From NCBI RefSeq assembly GCF_030028105.1, contig NC_092370.1:81922969-81986968 (forward strand): a stretch of DNA of 64,000 nucleotides, read 5' to 3'. Under the pieces are notes generated by a model, which was given only the letters and a program-made list of their open reading frames with translations, was not told where the DNA came from and made no database searches. The stretch is from Mobula birostris. Lineage: Eukaryota. Made by a program: the position numbers and the translations under genes. Position 1 is the first letter of the stretch. Each line of letters starts with the position of its first letter. Below, piece after piece: positions 11,600 to 59,210 of this stretch.

Positions 11600-14500
11600 A
11601 GTGGGATTCAGATTTCTGGATCATTGGGACCTCTTCTGGGGCAGGTGTGACGTGTACAAAAAGGACGGGTTGCACCTGAATCCGATGGGGACCAATATCC
11701 TGGCGGGAAGGTTTGCTAAGGCTATAGTTTAAACTAGAAATGCTGGGGGGTGGGAACCAAACTGAAGTGACGAAGGAAAGGGAGGTTGGCTGACAAATAG
11801 AGAAAGTTTAGAGACAGTGCGAAAAGGAGGATAGGCAGGTGATAGAGAAGGCACGCGCTCAGTCCGATGGTTTGAGATGTGTCTATTTTAATGCGAGGAG
11901 TATTATGAATAAAGCGGATGAGCTTAGAGCGTGGATCAGCACTTGAAGCTATGATGTTGTGGCCATTACAGAGACTTGGATGGGTCAGAGACAGGAATGG
12001 TTACTTCAAGTGCCAGGCTTTAGGTATTTCAGAAAGGATAGGGAGGGAGGCAAAAGAGGTGGGGGCGTGGCACTGTTGATCAGAGATAGTGTCACGGCTG
12101 CAGAAAAGGAGGAAGTCATAGAGGGGTTGTCTACGGAGTCTCTGTGGGTGGAAGTTAGGAATAGGAAGGGGTCAATAACTCTCTTGGGTGTTTTTTATAG
12201 ACCACCCAATAGTAACAGAGACATTGAGGAGCAGATAGGGAGACAGATTCTGGAAAGGAGTAATAATAGCAGGGTTGTTGTGGTGGGAGATTTTTATTTC
12301 CCAAATATTGATTGGCATCTCCCTAGAGTGAGGGGTTTCGATGGGGTGGGGTTTGTTAGGGGTGTTCAAGAAGGTTTCTTGAGACAATATGTAGATAAGC
12401 CTATAGGAGGAGAGACTGTACTTGATCTGGTATTGGGAAATGAACTTGGTCAGGTATCAGGTCTCTTAGTAGGAGAGCATTTTGGAGAGCAATTCTATCT
12501 CCTTTACTATCGCATTGGAGAGGGATAGAAACAGACAAGTTAGGGGAACGTCTAATTGGAGTAAGGGGAATTATGAGGCTATCAGGCAGGAACTGGGAAG
12601 CATAAATTGGAAAGAGATGTTCTTATAGGGAAATGTACCGAAGAAATGTGGCAAATGTTCAGGGGATATTTGCATGGGGTTCTGAGTAGGTACATTCCAA
12701 TGAGACATGGAAAGGATGGTAGGCTACAAGATCCATTGTACAACAAAGGCTGTTGTAAATCTAGTCAAGAAGAAAAGAAGAGCTTATGAAAGGTTCAAAA
12801 AACTAGGAAACGATATGAATCTAAAAGATTATAAGGCTAGCAGGAAGGAGCTTAAGAGTGAAATTAGGAGAGCCAGAAGGGGCCATGAGAAGGCCTTGGT
12901 GGACAGGATTAAGGGAAATCCCAAGACATTCTACAAGTATGTGAAGAGCAAGAGGATAAGTGTGAGAGAATAGGACCAATCAAGTGTGACAATGGAAAAG
13001 TGTGGAACCAGAGGAAATAGCGGAGGTACTTAATTAATACTTTGCTTCAATAATCACTGCCAAAAAGGATCTTCAGAATTGTCGGGATGACTTGCAGTGG
13101 ATTGAAAAGCTTGAGAATGTAGGCATTAAGAAAGAGGATGTGCTGGAGCTTTTGGAAAGCATCAAGTTGGATACGTCACCGAGACCGGATGGGACATACC
13201 CCAGGCTGCTGTGGGAAGTCAGGGAGGAGATTGCTGAGCCTCTGGCAATGATCTTTGCATCATCAATGAGGATGGGAGAGGTTTTGGAGGATTGGAGGGT
13301 TGCGGATGTTGTTCCCTTATTCAGGAAAGGGAGTAGGGATAGCCCAGGAAATTATAGGCCAATGAGTCTTACTCCAGTGGTTGGTAAGTTGATGGAGAAG
13401 ATCCTGAGAGGCAGGATTTATGTATGTTTGGAGAGCCATAATATGATTAGGAATAGTCAGCATGGCTTTGTCAAAGGCAGGTCGTGCTTTACGAGCCTGA
13501 TTGAATTTTTTGAGGATGTGACTAAACACATTGATGAAGGTAGAGCCATAGATGTAGTGTATATGGATTTTAGCAAGGCATTTGATAAGGTACTCCATGT
13601 AAGGCTTATTGAGAAAGTAAGGAGATATGGGATCCAAGGGGACATTGCTTTGTGGATCCAGAACTTGCTTGCCCACAGAAGGCAAAGAGTAGTTGTAGAC
13701 GGGTCATATTCTGCATGGAGGCTGGTGACCAGTGGTATGCCTCAGGGATCTGTTGTGGGATCCTTACTCTTTGTGATTTTTATAAATGACCTGGCTGAGG
13801 AAGTGGAGGGATGGGTTAGTAAATTTGCTGATGACACAAAGGTTGGGGGTGTTGTGGATAGTGTGGAGGGCTGTCAGAGGTTACAACAGGACATTGATAG
13901 GATGCAAATCTGGGCTGAGAAGTGGCAGATGGAGTTCAACCCAGGTAAGTGTGAGGTGGTTCATTTTGATAGGTCAAACATGATGGCAGAATATAGCATT
14001 AATGGTAAGACACTTGGCAGTGTAGAGGATCAGAGGGATCTTGGGATCCGAATCTATAGGACACTCAAAGCTGCTACACAGGTTGACTCTGTGGTTAAGA
14101 AGGCATACAGTGCATTGGCCTTCATCAATCGTGGGACTGAGTTTAAGAACCGAGAGGTAATGTTGCAGCTATTTAGGACCCTGGTCAGACCCCACTTGGA
14201 GTACTGTGCTCATTTCTGGTCCCCTCACTATAGGAAGGATGTGGAAACCATAGAAAGGGTGTAGATGAGATTTACAAGGATGTTGCATGGAATGGGGAGC
14301 ATGCCTTATGAGAATAGGTTGAGTGAACTCAGCCTTTTCTCCTTGGAGCGACAGAGGATGAGAGGTGACTTGATAGAACTGTACGAGATAATGAGCAGCA
14401 TTGATCATGTGGATAGTCAGAGGCTTTTTCCCAGGGCTGAAATGGCTAACATAGTTTTAAGGTGCTTGGAAGTAGGTACAGAGGAGATGTCAGGGGTAAG

Positions 14501-18524: not shown

Positions 18525-19777
18525 CAGTCAATGGCAGATGCAATCTCAATAGCTCTCCATATGGCTTTAGAGCCCTAGACAACATAAACACCTACCTCAG
18601 GATGCTGTTCATTGACTATAGCTCAGCATTTATTACCACCATTCCCAGAATCCTGAATGAGAAGTTGCAGAACCTGGGCCTCTGTACCCCACTCTGCAAT
18701 TGGATCCTCGATTTCCTAACCGGAAGATCACAGTCTGTGCGGATTGGTGATAACATATCCTCGTCGCTGACGATCAACACTGACACACCTCGGGTGTGTG
18801 CTTAGCCCACTGCTCTACTCTCTGTATGCACATAACTCTGTGGCTAGGTATAGCTCAAATACCATAGACAAATTTGCTGACAATACAACTATTGTTAGTA
18901 GAATATCAGGTGGTGACGAGAGGGCGTACAGGAGTGAGATATGCCAACTCATGGAATGGTGCCGCAGAAACAACCTGGCACTCAACGTCAGTAAAACGGA
19001 AGAGCTGATTGTGGACTTCAGGAAGGATAAGACGGAGGAACACATACCAATCCTCATAGAGGGATCAGAAGTGGAGAGAGTGAGCAGCTTCAAGTTCCTG
19101 GGTGTCAGGATCTTTGAAGATCTAACCTGGTCCCAACATATCGATGTAGTTATAAAGAAGGCAAGACAGTGGCTATACTTTATTAGGAGTTTGAAGAGAT
19201 TTGGCATGTCAACAGATACACTCAAAAACTTCTATAGTTGTACTGTGAAGAGTGTTCTGACAGGCTGCATCACTGTCTGGTATGGAGGGGCTACTGAACA
19301 AGACTGAAAAAAGCTGCAGAAGGTTGTAAATCTAGTCAGCTCCATCTTGGGTACTAGCCTACAAAGTACCCAGGACATCTTTAGGGAGCAGTGTCTGAGA
19401 AAGGCAGCGTCCATTATTAAGGACCTCCAGCACCCAGGGCATGCCTTTTTCTCGCTGTTACCATCAGGTAGGAGATACAGAAGTCTGAAGGCACACACTC
19501 AGCGATTCAGAAACAGCTTCTTCCCCTTTGCAATCCAATTCCTAAATGGACATTGAAGCTTTGGACACTACCTCACATTTTTTACTATTTAGAATTTCTG
19601 TTTTTGCACATTAAAAAAAATCTATTCAATGTACGTAATTGATTTTCTTATTTATTATTATGTTTTATTTTATTATTATTTTCCCGCTCTGCTAGATTAT
19701 GTATTGCATTGAACTGCTGCTGCTAAGTTAACAAATTTCACGTCACATGCCAGTGATAATAAACCTGATTCTGATTC
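18525..19777 (+). mobile_element. Rex1/Babar LINE, 5'-truncated RT and 3' UTR
   Basis: ORFs 18602..18805 ([19 protein letters not shown]), 18798..19307 ([33 protein letters not shown]) and 19347..19556. Tail aataaacctgattctgatt. Confidence 0.93.
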
Positions 19778-27679: not shown

Positions 27680-28210
27680 AACCTCTGCAACTTCCGTCAT
27701 CTCCAAAGGGATCTTACCACTGAACATATCTTTACCTTTCCTCTCCTCCCACCCCGAATCACCCACTTTCTGCGGAATTGCTCCCACCATGATTCCCTTA
27801 TCCTTCCGTCACGTCCCACTAATCTTCCTCCCAGCACTTATCCCTGCAAGCAGCCTAAGTGGTACATGTGCCCGTTCACCTCCTACCTCACCTGCATTCA
27901 GGGCCCCAAACAGTCCTACACCTGCCTATCACCTTCTCCTAGATACACCCCTTTATTCCTTTCTCCTATGGTCCACTCTCCTCTCCTATCAGATTCCTTC
28001 CTCTTCAACTCTTTAACTTTCCTACCCACCTGGCTTCGCCTATGACCTTCTAGCTATTCTCCTTCCCCTGTGCCCACCTTTTTATTCTGTCATCTTCTTC
28101 CTGCCTTTCCAGTCCTGAAGAAGAGTCTTGGCCTGAAATGTTGACTGTTTATTTATTTCCATAGTTGCTGCCTAACTTGATGATTTCCTCCAGCATTTTG
28201 TGTGTGTTGT
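27680..28210 (+). mobile_element. Penelope-like (Neptune-type) fragment with internal deletion
   Basis: aacttccgtcatctccaaagggat = NFRHLQRD and the Cys-rich linker match 53780-54010. The GIY-YIG region is missing. Pyrimidine-rich UTR, hammerhead remnant, and terminus cagcattttgtgtgtgttg follow. Confidence 0.85.
28111..28146 (+). ncRNA. Minimal hammerhead ribozyme motif, partly decayed
   Basis: AGTC-CTGAAGA-AGA-gtcttgg-CCT-GAA-ATGT-T-GACT: core retained, one stem II mismatch, ACGT changed to ATGT. Confidence 0.7.
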
Positions 28211-34718: not shown

Positions 34719-35859
34719 ATGGATTTTAGTAAGGCATTTGACAAGGTTCCACATGGTAGGCTTATTCAGAAAGTCAGAAGGCATGGGATCCAGGGAAGTT
34801 TAGCCAGGTGGATTCAGAATTGGCTTGCCTGCAGAAAACAGAGGGAGTACATTCGGATCGGAGGGTTGTGACTATTGGTGTCCCACAAGGATCCGTTCTG
34901 GGACCTCTACTTTTTGTGATTTTTATTAACGACCTGGATGTGGGGGTAGAAGGGTGGGTTGGCAAGTTTGCAGACGACACAAAGGTTGATAGTGCTGTGG
35001 CTAGTGTAGAGGATTGTCGAAGATTGCAGAGAGACATTGATAGGATGCAGAAGTGGGCTGAGAAGTGGCAGATGGAGTTCAACCCGGAGAAGTGTGAGGT
35101 GGTACATTTTGGAAGGACGAACTTCAAGGCAGAGTACAAAGTAAATGGCAGGACACTTGGCAGTGTGGAGGAGCAGAGGGATCTGGGGGTACATGTCCAC
35201 AGATCCCTGAAAGTTGCCTTACAGGTGGATAGGGTGGTCAAGAAAGCTTATGGGGTGTTAGCTTTCATAAGTCGAGGGACAGAGTTTAAGAGTTGCGATG
35301 TAATGATGCAGCTCTATAAAACTCTGGTTAGGCCACACTTGGAGTACTGTGTCCAGTCTGGTCACCTCACTATAGGAAGGATGTGGAAGCATTGGAAAGG
35401 GTACAGAGGAGATTTACCAGGATGCTGCCTGGTTTATAGAGTATGCATTATGATCAGAGATTAAGGGAGCTAGGGCTTTACTCTTTGAAGAGAAGGAGGA
35501 TGAGAAGTGACATGATAGAGGTATACAAAATATTAAGAGGAATAGATAGAGTGGACAGCCAACGCCTCTTCCCCAGGGCACCACTGTTCAGTACAAGAGG
35601 ATATGGCTTTAAGGTAAAGGGTGGGAAGTTCAAGGGGGATATGAGAGGAAGGTTTTTTACTCAGAGAATGGTTGGTGCATAGAATGCACTGCCTGAGTTA
35701 GTGGTGGAGGCAGATACACTCCTGAAGTCTAAGAGACTACTAGACAGGTATATGGAGGAATTTAAGGTGGGGGGGTTATATGGGAGGCAGGGTTTAAGGG
35801 TCGGCATAACATTGTGGGCCAAAGGGCCTGTACTGTGCTGTACTGTTCTATGTTCTATG
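34719..35859 (+). mobile_element. CR1 LINE, 5'-truncated (RT to 3' tail), relatively young
   Basis: MDFSKAFDKV at the start; ORF 34808..35464 GVPQGSVLGP, KFADDTK, LVRPHLEYC; RFFTQR; tail tgttctatgttctatg. Confidence 0.95.
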
Positions 35860-40092: not shown

Positions 40093-41200
40093 TTTTTTTA
40101 TTTCAAAATATACTTTATTCAAAAATAAATATATACAATAAACCATTCAATAACTTTCCATCCTTTACATACGTTTCCATTAAAGTCAGTATATTTCCAT
40201 ATTTATGGCCACCCACGTGGCACTCCAGTTGTTCACCTTACCACATCACTATTGAGGGGTATACTCCCCGCCACCTGACCCCTCCCACTCCCGCGGGTGA
40301 AGAAACCTATACCGTGGTCGTTCCCCACCGGGCCCTTGCGGTGGCTGCACCGAGTTTCAGTGCGTCCCTCAGCACATACTCCTGCAGCCGAGAATGTGCC
40401 AGTCGGCAGCATTCTGCCACGGACATCTCCATGTGCTGGTAGATCATCAAGTTTCGGGCCGACCAAAGAGCGTCCTTCACCAAGTTGATGATCTGCCAGC
40501 AGCACCGGATGTTGGTCTCCATGTGCGTCCCCAGGAACAGCCCGTAGATCAGAGAGTCCTCTGTTACGCAGCTGTTGGGGATGAAACGTGACACTAGCCC
40601 GTCCATCCTCCTCCACACCCTCTTTGTGAACTGACAGTGTGCAAAGAGGTGGGTCACAGACTCCTCCTCACTGCAGTCCTCCCGTGGGCAGTGGGGTGCG
40701 GAGACGACGTTCCGGGCGTACAGGAGGGCTCTGACTGGGAGGGCCCCTCTCACCGCCAGCCAGGCAAGGTCTTTGTGCCTGTTGCTGAGATCTGGTGATG
40801 AGGCATTTTGCCAGATGAACTGGACGGTCTGCTCAGGGAACCACCCCACTGTGTCCATCACGTCCTTCTCCTGCAGTGCCTGTAGGACATTACGTGTCAA
40901 CCACTTTCTGATGGCCCTGTGGTCAAAGGCGTTCTCCTGGAAGAACTTTGCTACGTAGGACAGGTATGGTGGCAATGACCAGCTGACTGGGGCGTTGCGC
41001 AGGAGTGGGGCCAGACCCATCCTTCGTAGCCAGGGCGACAGGTAGAACCTGGGCACATATTGGTACTTGGTGCCCACATACCTGGGTTCTACACACAACC
41101 TGATGCAGCCACATACGAAGCTGGCCATCAGGGTGAGGGCGACATTGGGGACGTTCTTGCCCCCGTTGTCCAGGGACTTGTGCATGATGGTCCGTCTCAC
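40093..41200 (-). mobile_element. Tx1/L1-clade LINE 3' fragment, young, 8-bp TSD
   Basis: Uninterrupted ~297-codon ORF2 C-terminus with zinc-finger CPREDC...ESVTHLFAHC and LWSARN. AATAAA (40114-40119, -) and A-tail. TSD TCTTGAAT at 40085-40092 and 41201-41208. CpG-rich. Confidence 0.93.
40307..41200 (-). pseudogene. Tx1 ORF2 C-terminal region (zf-RVT), 5'-truncated
   Basis: ORF 40307..41227; its first ~9 codons lie in the flanking DNA/TSD. Confidence 0.88.
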
Positions 41201-41242
41201 TCTTGAATATTGTTGGGCTGTACTCATCCAGGTAAGTGAGGA

Positions 41243-41450
41243 CCAGCTTCTTCCCCTTCTGCCATACGATTCCTAATTGGACATTGAACCCATGAACAAT
41301 ACCTCACTTTTTAGTTAAATAATATATATTTCTGCTTTTGAACTATTTTTAATTATTTCTATATACATATACTTTAATCAATGTATTTATTTTCTTTCTG
41401 TATTATGTATTATACTGCTGCTAGGAAGTTAACAAATTTCATAACACATC
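41243..41450 (+). mobile_element. Rex1/Babar 3' tail fragment
   Basis: cagcttcttcccc...ttcctaattggacattgaa matches 19513-19557; ctgctgct..gttaacaaatttca matches 19714-19740. Confidence 0.8.
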
Positions 41451-49464: not shown

Positions 49465-50287
49465 TAGGCTTCATCTGACCACAGGACCTTCTTCCACATC
49501 TTTATAGTATCTTCTAAGTGATGCTCTGGAAAATCTTCATAGGCAAGGATATGCTTTTTTTGAGCCAGGGCTTTTTCCTTGCCACTTTTCCATAAGTAGC
49601 CATTTTCTGCAAGGCTTTGAGAGATTGTGCAGCCATGAACTTCATCTCCATTTGCAGCTACTGAGTTATGCAGCTTACTTGAACTGACTGTTGACATCTC
49701 TTACAAGTGCTACTCTTCTCAGGCAACTAAGTTTAAAGGGCGACTTGACTTAGGCAGTATGACTGTGGTTTTATTTTTTTTCTACCTTTTCATGATGGAC
49801 TGCACTGAGCTCCAAGGTATGTTCAGGGCCTTTGAGATGGTTTTATACCCTTTCCCCATCTGTGTCTGATTTGTCTTGAATTCTTTTTTGTCTTCATTTT
49901 GGTTTAATCTGTTGAAAATCTACTATACTGTTGGACCTTACAGAGAGAGGGGGTATTTATTTTTATGAATTCATTGAAAGCAGGTGATCCTCCAATTTTC
50001 TACATCAACAAATTGGGTCAGCTGGTAAAGTAATATACAGTATTGCACCAGAGGAAAGTTAGCATAGTAATTACAAAGGGGATGAATACTTCTTCAGCCT
50101 CACAATTTTGGGTTTAAATTTTTAGTAAATTGTTGACAGATTTTTGAATTTTTCTTTTGATTTGACACGATGTACAATGTTTTATAGATTACCTCAAAAC
50201 TCCTACTTCAATATGTTTTAAATTTAGAAAATGAGAAAGTAAAGTGTGAAAATAGTTGGTGGGGCTGAATACTTATTTGAGGTACTG
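49465..50287 (-). mobile_element. Tc1 5' half (different, older family)
   Basis: ORF 49464..49697(-) ends WKKVLWSDE. Terminus ...gaatacttatttgaggtactg with an inner repeat gaatacttct at ~50084. The other end is missing. Confidence 0.8.
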
Positions 50288-52940: not shown

Positions 52941-53107
52941 AAAAAATCTCAATATGTGTATTTTTTCCAAAAAGCAAAACGAAGAAGTAGAGAGGCAACG
53001 ATTCGATTATGAGAGAGGAATGGGGAAAAAAGTAGCTTTTTTTTGCAACACACATCAAAGTTACTGGTGAACGCAGCAGGCCAAGCAGCATCTGTAGGAA
53101 GAGGTGC

Positions 53108-53143
53108 AGTCGACGTTTCAGGCCGAGACCCTTCGTCAGGACT
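53108..53143 (-). ncRNA. Minimal type I hammerhead ribozyme, intact core
   Basis: Minus strand AGUC-CUGACGA-AGG-gucucgg-CCU-GAA-ACGU-C-GACU: CUGANGA and GAAA core, stem I AGUC/GACU, stem II AGG/CCU, palindromic ACGU in place of stem III, GUC cleavage triplet. Confidence 0.85.
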
Positions 53144-53440
53144 AACTGAAGGAAGAGTGAGTAAGGGATTTGAAAGTTGGAGGGGGAGGGGGAGATCCAA
53201 AATGATAGGAGAAGACAGGAGGGGGAGGGATGGAGCCAAGAGCTGGATGGGTGATAGGCAAAAGGGGATACGAGAGGATGATGGGACAGGAGGTCTGGGA
53301 AGAAAGACGGTGGGGGGGGGGGGACCCAGAGGATGGGCAAGAGGTGTATTCAGAGGGACAGAGGGAGAAAAAGGAGAGTGAGAGAAAGAATGTGTGCATA
53401 AAAATAAGTAACAGATGGGGTACGAGGGGGAGGTGGGGCC

Positions 53441-54192
53441 TTAGTGGAAGTTAGAGAAGTCGATGTTCATGCCACCAGGTTGGAGGCTACCCAGATGGAA
53501 TATAAGGTGTTGTTCCTCCAACCTGAGTGTGGCTTCATCTTTACAGTAGAGGAGGCCGTGGATAGACATGTCAGAATGGGAATGGGAATGGGATGTGGAA
53601 TTAAAATGTGTGGCCACTGGGAGATCCTGCTTTCTCCGGCGGACAGAGCGTAGATGTTCAGCAAAGCGGTCTCCCAGTCTGCGTCGGGTCTCGCCAATAT
53701 ATAAAAGGCCACATCGGGAGCACCGGACGCAGTATATCACCCCAGTCAACTCACAGGTGAAGTGTTGCCTCACCTGGAAGGACTGTTTGGGGCCCTGAAT
53801 GGTGGTAAGGGAGGATGTGTAAGGGCATGTGTAGCACTTGTTCCGCTTACACGGGTAAGTGCCAGGAGGGAGATCAGTGGGGAGGGATGGGGGGGGGACG
53901 AATGGACAAGGGAGTTGTGTAGGGAGCGATCCCTGCGAAATGCAGAGAGAGGTGGGGAGGGAAAGATGTGCTTAGTGGTGGGATCCCGTTGGAGGTGGCG
54001 GAAGTTACGGAGAATAATATGTTGGACCCGGAGGCTGGTGGGGTGGTAGGTGAGGACCAGGGGAACCCTATTCCTAGTGGGGTGGCGGGAGGATGGAGTG
54101 AGAGCAGATGTATGTGAAATGGGGGAGATGCGTTTGAGAGCAGAGTTGATAGTGGAGGAAGGGAAGCCCCTTTCTTTAAAAAAGGAAGACAT
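53441..54192 (-). pseudogene. PLE polyprotein C-terminus (linker + GIY-YIG endonuclease), one frameshift
   Basis: Two adjoining ORFs; frameshift near the G-run at ~53880-53898. Confidence 0.9.
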
Positions 54193-55129
54193 CTCAAGTT
54201 TTTAAATATATGTCTGAATTAAGATTAAAAGGAACCATGTTCCATACTTGTAACAGTTAATTTGTGGTAACGAGAGCTCAGCTGCTTGCAAATGATATAT
54301 ATTACCTATTATTAAAATATATAAGATATAATGTGTATGACATATACACACACACTCCCAGATATACATATACAGGCTTTTTACTCCATTACTTGGATAG
54401 AAATGAAGATGCCTTGATTTTCTGTTCAGTTTCCTTTTTATCTGTTATTGAAGTATGGGAAATTAATGTTGCTTGATGCACTTGAATGTATTTCGATTTG
54501 GCAAGATAATAATGATAGAATGGTAAATTCCTGATAGCAACTTTCCCATTTTTGAATCCGATCATCCATATCTCCGGCCTGATGTTGCTCCAGTATTTGG
54601 ACATAAATAATTAACCTTTCTATATTTTGGCAAAGTACGGTAAAATATTGAAGTAGCACACTTGTATTGATGAAACTTGAGTTTTATGACCTAAATATTT
54701 TCTTAATGCAGATTTTCTGAATAAAACATAAATTGTGATCGTTCAAAGCATTGTAAATTGCTCTGAACCATTGTAATGGTGCAATTCAGTAGGTTTTTTT
54801 GACACTGGATATAATAGAAAATAATGAATATTGGTAGGCCTTATTTTCTAAAGGGACATTACCTGGTATCCAGTGCTTCTCGTGACTTTCCCAGTGTTTC
54901 TGCTGAGAGGATATGTAACTGATATTCTCCTGGACCTCAGCAATGTCATACCTGAATTAGGCACTAGAGGATGCAAAAGAGTGATCAGTGATCTTCTAAT
55001 TTTGGTAGATGCCCCATTTGTTCCTCCTACATTCCCATGAATTGGAATTCAATTCAATCAGAGAATAGAACATCCAAAGCATGAATGTTGGAATAGATAC
55101 ACCCTGGAAGGGTGTTATTCAGGCTGTTG

Positions 55130-56400: not shown

Positions 56401-56739
56401 TCAGTGAGTCATGGAATCATGTAGCACAGAAATGTTAGCACTAAATTCATGCTGACCCTTCTCCCCGTTTACACTAATCCCATTTACCATGTAGTTTCCT
56501 ATTTCGTCATTCAGCAAATTGGGATAGATTCCATTTGCATCAAATGATTTATTTATTTGAAGCATAACTTGCCTAATACCTACATGTCATCAGTTTTTGG
56601 CTCATTCAAAATCTCAGTGAATGATTTCATCAGCATCTTCTTCCTCGATGAAGGCTAAAGTGAAAATACTTGCATAATGCTGATTATGTAGTATACTTGA
56701 ATTAAACTGGAATTACTTTTTGTTGTTTTGTAAATTGTT

Positions 56740-57120
56740 CCTTGTGCAATTGGTTCCTCGATTTCCTTGATTACAGTCCCCCAGTCAGTTCAGATTGGCA
56801 ACAACATGTTCAGCATCTCTATCAGCACAGGTGCACCACAAGGCTGTATACTTGGACCCTTGCTCTACTCGCTTTACACTTATGACTTCGTGGCTAAGTA
56901 CAACTCCAGTGTCATATTCAAGTTTGCTGACAACAGCACTGTCGTAGGCAGAATCAAACGTGATGATTAATCAGCATGTAGGAGGGGGAATGAAAATCTG
57001 GCTGAGTGGTTCCACAACAACAACCTCTTTCTCTATGTCAGCAACACCAAGGAGCTGATTATTGGCCTCAGGAGGAGGAATCCAGAGGCCATGAGTCAGT
57101 CCTCTTTGGAGGATCAGAAG
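56740..57120 (+). mobile_element. Rex1/Babar RT fragment
   Basis: ORF 56767..56970 STGAPQGCILGPLLYSLYT...KFADNSTVVG. Abuts a minus-strand CR1 piece at 57121-57370. Confidence 0.88.
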
Positions 57121-57599: not shown

Positions 57600-59210
57600 C
57601 AGTGGCATGCAAAAGTTTGGGCATCCCGGTCAAAATTTCTGTTACTGTGAATAATTAAGTGAATAGAAGATGAACTGATCTCCAAAAGTCATAAACTTAA
57701 AGATGAAACATTCTTTTCAACATTTTAAGCAAGATTAGTGTATTATTTTTGTTTTGTACAATTTTAGAGTGAAAAAAAGGAAAGGAGCACCATGCAAAAG
57801 TTTGGGCACCCCAAGAGATTTGAGCTCTCAGATAACTTTTACCAAGGTCTCACACCTTAATTAGCTTGTTAGGGCTATGACTTGTTCACAGTCAATGTTA
57901 GGAAAGGCCAGGTGATGTAAGTTTCAAAGCTTTATAAATACCCTGACTCCTCAAACCTTGTCTCAACAATCAGCAGCAATGGGCTTCTCTAAGCAGCTGC
58001 CTAGCACTCTGAACATTAAAATAAATGATGCCCACAAAGCAGCAGAAGGCTATAAGAAGATAGCAAAGTGTTTTCAGGTAGCCGTTTCCTCAGTTCATAA
58101 TGTAATTGAGAAATGGCAGTTAACAGGAATGGTGAAGGTCAAGTTGACGTCTGGAAGACCAAGAAAACTTTCCGAGAGAACTGCTCATAGGATTGCTAGA
58201 AAGGCAAATCAAAACCCCCATTTGACTGCAAAAGACCTTCAGGAAGATTTAGCAGATTCTGGAGTGGTGGTGCACTGTTCTACTGTGCAGTGACATCTGC
58301 ACAAAAATTACCTGCATGGAAGAGTCACCGGAAGAAAATTTTTCCCTGTGTCCTCACCACAAAATTCAGCATCAGAAGTTTGCAAAGGAACAGCTAAACA
58401 AGTCGGATGCATTTTGGGAACAAGTCCTGTGGACTGATGAAGTTAAAATAGAACTTTTTGGTCGCAGTGAGCAAAGATATGTTTGGAGAAAAAAGGGTGT
58501 AGAGTTTCATGAAAAGAACACCTCTCCAACTGTTAAGCACGGGGGGTGGATCGATCTCGCTTTGGGCTTGTGTTGCAGCCGGTGGCACGGAGAACATTTC
58601 ACTGGTAGAAGGAAGAATGAATTCAATTAAATACCAGCAAATTCTAGAAGCAAACATCACACCGTCTATAAAAAAGCTGAAGATGAAAAGAGGATGGGTT
58701 CTACAACAGGATAATGATCCTAAACATACCTCAAAATCCACAATGGACTACCTCAAGAGGCATAAGCTGAAGGTTTTGCCATGGGCCTCACAGTCCCCCG
58801 ACCTAAACATCATCGAGAATCTGTGGATAGACCTCAAAAGAGCAGTGCATGCAGGATGGCCCAAGAATCTCACAGAACTGGAAGCCTTTTGCAAGGAAGA
58901 ATGGGCGAAAATCCCCCAAACAAGAGTTGAAAGACTTAGCTGGCTACAGAAAGCGTTTACAAGCTGTGATACTTGCCAAAGGGGGTGTTACTAAGTACTG
59001 ACCATGCAACGTGCCCAAACTTTTGTTTTAGGCCCTTTTCCTTTTTTGTTATTTTGAAACCGTAAAAGATAGAAATAAAAAAAGTAATCTTGCTTAAAAT
59101 ATTAAAGAAATGTGTCATCTTTAACTTCATGCCTTTTGGAAATCAGGTCATCTTTTACTCGCTTAGCTATTCACAGTAACAGAAATTTTGACCAGGGGTG
59201 CCCAAACTTT
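57600..59210 (+). mobile_element. Tc1 (DD34E) transposon, IR/DR type, near full length
   Basis: TA then CAGTGGCATGCAAAAGTTTGGGCA; inner repeat at 57791-57812; ~210-bp TIR mirrored at 59011-59210. The outermost ~11 bp of the right end are missing. Confidence 0.96.
57979..59001 (+). pseudogene. Tc1 transposase with a stop and frameshifts
   Basis: MGFSKQL...GYKKIAK...GRPRK; VLWTDE; KHGG; QQDNDPKH-34 residues-E (SPDLNIIE); end AKGGVTKY*. Confidence 0.93.

Follow-up and report, generated by a model that had tools for sequence, protein, structure and literature searches.

A complete minimal type I hammerhead motif (min-HHR) with an intact core lies on the minus strand at positions 53143-53108, near the 3' end of a Penelope-like element (PLE) copy of Mobula birostris. 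We consider it probable (roughly 0.8) that this intact motif is inert in the present copy, and that in the parent elements it heads an RNA that is mostly left uncut and is only rarely cut. The anatomy of the motif, its copy numbers, the distributions of copy ends and the tandem layout of siblings were observed, and we infer from them an RNA start, a folding switch and rare cleavage. Hereafter, "the window" is the whole 64,000-nt stretch of DNA analysed, and signed positions are counted from the predicted cut, with +1 at 53111.

Table 1. Features of the hammerhead and of the element copy that holds it (window positions).
Feature	Position	Strand	Remarks
Minimal type I hammerhead, whole	53107..53144	-	stem I of 5 pairs including one wobble; core intact
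Hammerhead stem I	53143-53140 with 53111-53108	-	four Watson-Crick pairs
Stem I, extra pair	U53144·G53107	-	wobble
CUGACGA box	53139-53133	-	
Unpaired (bulged) A	53132	-	preferred helix II register
Helix II	53131-53120	-	4 pairs, G·U at 10.1-11.1
GAAA	53119-53116	-	
ACGU palindrome (helix III, 15.2-16.2)	53116-53113	-	
C17	53112	-	predicted cut between 53112 and 53111
Alternative hairpin, predicted	53128..53158	-	upstream pyrimidines pair with CUGA box and helix II
5'-end hot spot of the family, equivalent (-33..-30)	53141..53144	-	end sample; homology to older subfamilies resumes at 53143
Penelope-like (Neptune-type) retrotransposon copy	53045..54195	-	5'-truncated, 3' end tail-less; sibling alignments
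RT-to-endonuclease region, remnant	53770..54195	-	out of frame with endonuclease at poly-C near 53890
CX4CX2C zinc-finger linker (Neptune/Nematis feature)	53825..53851	-	translation; definition of PMC8557442
C-terminal GIY-YIG endonuclease with CCHH	53441..53743	-	PF01541, E 6.5e-5
Pyrimidine-rich 3' UTR / pLTR	53145..53440	-	unalignable to older subfamilies (alignments break, query 860 to 1157)
Conserved pLTR segment to first (tail-less) 3' end	53045..53106	-	likely inner reverse-transcription start; compare PMC11167929

Base-by-base reading agrees with the preliminary description, according to which every core nucleotide and both stems are intact on the sense strand of the element (the minus strand here), stem III is reduced to the palindrome ACGU, and the cut is predicted to follow C53112. 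The conserved core CUGANGA ... GAAA ... UH is present, the type I closure is made by a helix I of 4-5 bp (53144-53140 with 53111-53107), A53132 is the unpaired base between 9 and 10.1, and the palindrome at 15.2-16.2 allows a nested dimer to be drawn. In the best register of helix II calculated by RNAfold, A53132 is bulged and the closing pair, G53131·U53120, is a wobble instead of the usual G10.1-C11.1 pair; C occupies position 11.1 in 11 of 66 sampled siblings. The G10.1-C11.1 pair is a highly conserved tendency of min-HHRs and lies outside the published descriptor. A descriptor scan of the window gave two matches, the present motif and a decayed relative on the plus strand (28110-28147), and 30 Markov-1 control windows gave six loose and no strict matches with the same descriptor. 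The Rfam covariance models detected no hammerhead family at E ≤ 10 between positions 50000 and 58000.

The min-HHRs reported from the pLTRs of metazoan PLEs, including Xena, Poseidon and Neptune of fish (Cervera and De la Pena 2014, PMC4209133), have the same type I topology and an intact core. They share with the present motif the 4-5 bp helix I, the unpaired base before helix II and the palindromic 15.2-16.2, and are described as mostly single motifs in truncated copies, with some opposite-strand pairs. In contrast to them, the motif has G·U in place of the highly conserved G10.1-C11.1 pair and a short helix II (4 pairs). Its position in the pLTR of a PLE and its dimer-type architecture are those proposed in the preliminary description, and by its sequence and predicted secondary structure the motif is a genuine member of the published class, with a putative catalytic activity. 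The motif itself is ordinary, because PLE min-HHRs, including those of fish Neptune, have been published since 2014 (PMC4209133) and the present copy has tens of thousands of counterparts in the genome.

The element copy is 1.15 kb long (54195-53045). The hammerhead begins 297 nt downstream of the GIY-YIG stop codon (53443-53441), and the end of the copy at 53045 is 63 nt past 53108, close to the distances of about 300 and 65 nt given earlier. The family has two ends, of which this is the one without a tail, and many siblings extend 35-40 nt more. No target-site duplication was seen in 30 nt of flank around the copy. The RT core is absent from it; the stretch at 53770..54195 has its counterpart in sibling L101, where a single ORF of 793 aa places it after a PLE-type RT (motifs read in the translation; RVT_1 E 4.4e-5, below the Pfam cut-off). 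The linker (53851-53825) agrees with the CX2-5CxxC type that has been assigned to Neptune and Nematis (PMC8557442). Because only Neptune and Poseidon PLEs are reported as found in vertebrates in a 2026 preprint (10.64898/2026.07.22.740005), Neptune is preferred over Nematis, which shares the linker motif. The Neptune-type assignment of the preliminary description is kept as the preferred one, by linker and endonuclease motifs. Neptune EN+ PLEs (Craig et al. 2021, PMC8557442) are described with the same C-terminal GIY-YIG domain with CCHH and the same linker type, and also with partial tandems, inverted 5'-truncated partners and an optional tail.

The copy had been called young, which agrees with its 2.4-3% substitutions from the nearest siblings (25 best of 52 long alignments), but it has lost its 5' part (truncation at about 54195) and has a frameshift near 53890. 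It cannot make the element protein; the copy is dead, and its hammerhead is likely inert. A tandem layout is seen in siblings L327 and L328, and in L327 the hammerhead is followed by the tail and then, about 139 nt past the cut, by an ATG. Non-LTR retrozymes (10.64898/2026.07.22.740005; PMC7229834) likewise have a type I hammerhead, and their origin from PLE pLTRs has been proposed; they are described as protein-free tandem arrays (10.64898/2026.07.22.740005), whereas the present motif is single and attached to an endonuclease ORF, and no protein-free array with the hammerhead in at least two consecutive units was found at this locus.

The window holds further transposon remnants. An older, decayed PLE end (+27683-28210; 68% identity to the young copy) contains the degenerate hammerhead at 28110-28147, with CpG-type decay in the palindrome and stem I. 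A broken Tc1/mariner transposase with a Sleeping Beauty-type HTH and DDE_3 lies in three frames at 57916-58994 (+), and LINE fragments (endonuclease, RVT_1, zf-RVT) lie at 11947-14264, 18771-19307, 34760-35464 and 56734-56970 (+) and at 40307-41272 (-). In the 50 of 129 window ORFs that were scanned, only transposon domains and no host-gene domains were detected, a search that short exons would escape.

In the 4.0-Gb genome, the core pattern has 74,269 matches, compared with 183 for the reversed-pattern control, and an anchor downstream of the cut has 87,038. Core and stems are intact in 38,944 copies, so the many sibling copies mentioned in the preliminary description do exist. About 4,000 copies in coelacanth and 9,000 in Xenopus were obtained with the descriptor of PMC4209133, a count whose method is not comparable with our pattern count. 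Among 66 sampled indel-free copies that span the motif (two more were left out for indels), 36 have it intact. In older subfamilies (L007, L047, L055 and L057), the endonuclease aligns at 71-78% and the alignment is lost in the 3' UTR, and it resumes at the base equivalent to 53143. This return of homology at the hammerhead after an unalignable UTR suggests selection on a block that begins with the hammerhead. In 25 copies with divergent flanks, a set contaminated by junction loci, only one-sided changes and no compensatory double changes were observed in the stems.

The claim that the present copy is a potentially active ribozyme was not supported by the folding calculations. Stems I and II are predicted with a probability of 0.5-0.6 for an RNA starting at -32 to -36, 0.2 for one starting at -38, and below 0.01 for starts from -47 outward, i.e., once the RNA includes at least 47 nt before the cut. 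In the longer RNA the stems are predicted to be lost because upstream pyrimidines pair with the CUGA box and helix II. The specificity of this predicted masking hairpin is weak, as stem I was also masked to P ≤ 0.01 when the 27 upstream nt were shuffled, in 10.5% of 200 trials. The catalytic dimer as drawn has a calculated energy of -11.5 kcal/mol (-16.7 with C at 11.1), compared with -11.0 for each misfolded monomer and -30.3 kcal/mol for the best non-catalytic cofold. These energy models, which leave out core tertiary contacts and proteins, favour other folds of the motif over the catalytic dimer.

It is unlikely that this copy cuts host or element transcripts after C53112 through pairing in trans with sibling RNAs. 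Its intact core and stems, the intact siblings as possible partners, and the predicted formation of the stems if the RNA starts at -36 to -32 would permit such cutting. PLE hammerheads are stated to cleave as dimers (Lunse et al. 2016, cited in the review PMC6765202), and PMC4209133 reports no cleavage by single min-HHRs and weak cleavage by dimers of other PLE min-HHRs in vitro. Against this stand the wobble at 10.1-11.1, the low stability of the catalytic dimer relative to the misfolded monomers and the cofold, the predicted masking in a read-through context, and the ORF scan, which gave no indication of a host transcript. Moreover, the hammerhead of PAc, a Poseidon element of Anolis, is reported to cut only with its protein (PMC11167929), and the present copy cannot encode such a protein.

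The ends of family copies may give a view of the RNA that was reverse transcribed. We examined 101 copies from 100 listed matches of the downstream anchor, all within the first 4.3 Mb of contig C1 and belonging to one subfamily group. The 5' ends of 17 of the 101 fall at -33..-30, the front edge of the motif, which corresponds to 6.0% per nt at risk (Poisson P 2e-13); by comparison, the rate is about 0.5% per nt from +22 to -29 and falls to 0.19% per nt in the interval -39..-138. None of the copies begins at the cut (+1) and one begins at +2; the expected 5' ends at 53111 thus showed no enrichment among genomic copies. The 3' ends are bimodal, with 48 copies ending at +55..+75 and 53 at +92..+105, where the reference ends (+105). 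The present copy (+67) belongs to the short class. An anchored partner on the opposite strand within 1.5 kb accompanies 24 of the 101 copies.

Genome-wide, with four mismatched flank bases required, the 5' boundaries number 2,454 at -31, compared with 341 at +1 and 145 at +5. About 50 of 100 listed +1 boundaries belong, by eye, to two recurrent microhomology joins; in 30 of the 341 that were classified by a script, the recurrent joins are to inverted partners via short repeats of stem I or the core. One of the two join types is ambiguous, as jumping from a 5' end created by cutting would also fit it. The 3' boundaries located at the cut were counted as 122 genome-wide, a number that includes many one-base deletions and has no matched control; the 269 at +4 are unusable for this purpose, as they include older subfamilies differing in sequence there. 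The G after the cut site is exactly missing in roughly 40 of 100 listed copies (by eye, without a control; e.g., L172-L176), which could be junction-related or a plain deletion.

These distributions largely refute the view that efficient cutting of a precursor RNA defines the transposing unit, by retrozyme-like or R2-like processing. Such a role was proposed in PMC4209133, and 129 short tandem joins of the motif exist in the genome, but the absence of starts at the cut in the sample, the 341 boundaries against 145 in the control, half of them explained by microhomology, and the 122 ends at the cut out of 87,038 anchored copies make it very improbable. As 17 of the 101 sampled copies begin at the front edge and none at the cut, the template was probably an uncut RNA with its start at the hammerhead, and judging from the copy ends most of the reverse transcription probably used uncut RNA.

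The simplest reading of the front-edge peak, as seen in DNA copies, is that it marks the RNA's own 5' end. Such a position is consistent with the location of PLE promoters in the pLTR (PMC2377424; PMC6765202). When extra G residues were examined as a sign of a cap, the outcome was mixed: G or GG was found at 11 of 18 insert junctions, and 17 starts at -32 without an assigned inverted partner had G in six cases and A in eleven. Within the predicted alternative hairpin (53128..53158), the sequence at -38..-33 is a putative initiator-like motif, and the AGs at -35 and -31 are putative 3' splice-acceptor-like sites. The inverted pLTR and the tail have been described previously, along with an initiator-like motif in rotifer pLTRs (PMC3846280).

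Branch-point-like, polypyrimidine and AG motifs lie directly before helix I at 53166-53142 (-), an arrangement resembling the intron of D. virilis that ends at helix I (PMC4209133). A spliced template was considered as the source of the 5' peak and rejected, as no common upstream exon was found in 17 peak copies (by eye) or in 30 loci, although an intron may be present there. No spliced genomic copies were seen at the equivalent of 53166-53142.

Short tandem joins provide a further view of the cut. Of the 129 joins, 100 were listed and yielded 90 distinct junction rows, from which we dropped 27 as other repeats or long inserts and two as duplicates; 45 of the 61 kept have no microhomology. In 11 of these 45 unambiguous joins, the upstream piece ends at C17, an excess with a corrected P of 6e-6 against a uniform null, which is a crude one. 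The fraction becomes 10 of 43 if two further probable segmental duplicates (judged by eye) are removed, and several of these 11 joins may be followed by a decayed CpG, which would shift the end to +1. Nine joins end at +6/+7 and none beyond +7, and the others end at -2 (6), +1 (3), +3 (4), +5 (1) and -6 to -18 (11). The seamless joins onto C17 are consistent with a template jump to a free 3' end, of the kind known for the R2 RT (PMC8857657). Tandem joins are rare, at a few hundredths of one percent of the copies, and those at C17 hint at occasional cutting in vivo.

Because no cut explains the +6/+7 cluster, both clusters could reflect the geometry of stem I. This is one element of a possible, though less likely, explanation in which the motif no longer cuts at all in this family but has been retained for a structural or protein-binding role, or because it serves as a promoter or splice signal, and in which the peak and the joins arise from RNA structure or polymerase slips at the edges of stem I. 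Fold-back joins via stem I complementarity do exist, most young copies have U and not C at 11.1, and the peak lies in the loop of a predicted hairpin, at an acceptor-like AG. In D. virilis an intron ends at helix I (PMC4209133), and catalytic mutants are reported to have no effect on PAc insertion in vitro (PMC11167929). However, the joins ending at C17 resume at -32, -37 or -44 without microhomology, the outcome expected if the RT jumped to the free 3' end of an RNA, and 30 starts at -32 have no upstream exon in common.

We therefore return to a rarely cutting hammerhead at the head of mostly uncut RNA. In the parent elements, the motif would be located at the very 5' end of the element RNA, which would start about 30-36 nt before the cut and read through the tail into the ORF, with the start codon at +139 as in the tandem sibling L327. 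Reverse transcription would begin at one of two internal sites, around +67 or +100, and continue as far as the RNA 5' end, for the most part on uncut RNA; the many short copies would arise in this way. According to the folding models, the ribozyme may fold only with little sequence before it. It would cut rarely, as a dimer or with the element protein, and the rare cutting would decap or process a minority of transcripts.

PAc (Frangieh et al. 2024, PMC11167929) offers a parallel for several of these steps. Its hammerhead is near the pLTR-ORF junction, as here, and the two families share two ends separated by a 30-40 nt tail, probably an uncut template, and a lack of ends at the cut; the report on PAc gives uncut RNA as the template and no RNA reads ending at the cut. 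In the present family, the two 3' ends lie 35-40 nt from each other and correspond to the pair of internal RT starts reported for PAc (PMC11167929). Unlike the present copy, PAc belongs to the Poseidon clade and is described without the zinc-finger linker, and its ORF starts inside helix II (PMC11167929), whereas the ATG here follows the cut by about 139 nt.

We tentatively extend this reading, with somewhat less than even confidence, to propose that the genomic ends map the RNA start, that the hammerhead is a switch depending on its distance from the 5' end, and that the C17 joins record cleavage in vivo followed by template jumping. The ribozyme would then be free at the RNA 5' end and masked in the downstream repeat. 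If true, this would provide in vivo evidence for the activity of a PLE min-HHR, none of which was found in the literature searched, and PMC8557442 calls the function of PLE hammerheads unclear. Among titles and abstracts, with subscription papers outside the scope, we found none on such genomic end-mapping of PLE hammerheads and none on PLE hammerheads of cartilaginous fish specifically; the preprint 10.64898/2026.07.22.740005 includes one chondrichthyan for retrozymes, and preprint supplements may list chondrichthyan families. The size of the family makes the role of the ribozyme testable from DNA alone. From the DNA one would expect an RNA that starts at -36..-30, templates that are mostly uncut, and a minor cut fraction with its end at C17. 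If this is confirmed, the hammerhead would act as a brake or as a processing switch heading the mRNA and not as the releaser of the transposing unit.

Several additional arrangements of the motif were observed. Three contig sets from other samples also carry the family, and 13 of their contigs have loose ends at 53142 and 14 at 53143; these were not counted as evidence, as contigs are uninformative on expression or RNA ends. Ten identical junction matches with regular spacing at G000 C6:35.6-36.3 Mb suggest a duplication, either segmental or of a tandem gene cluster. Hammerheads paired head to head, their cores separated by exactly 11 bases (L038/L039 and others), occur three times among the first 100 matches. 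Short tandem arrays composed of units derived from the hammerhead CUGA box are present at G000 C8:168602249-168602439 (L251) and G000 C11:1690058-1690664 (L261), with units of 45 and 35 nt, respectively, and are possible satellite or retrozyme-like derivatives.
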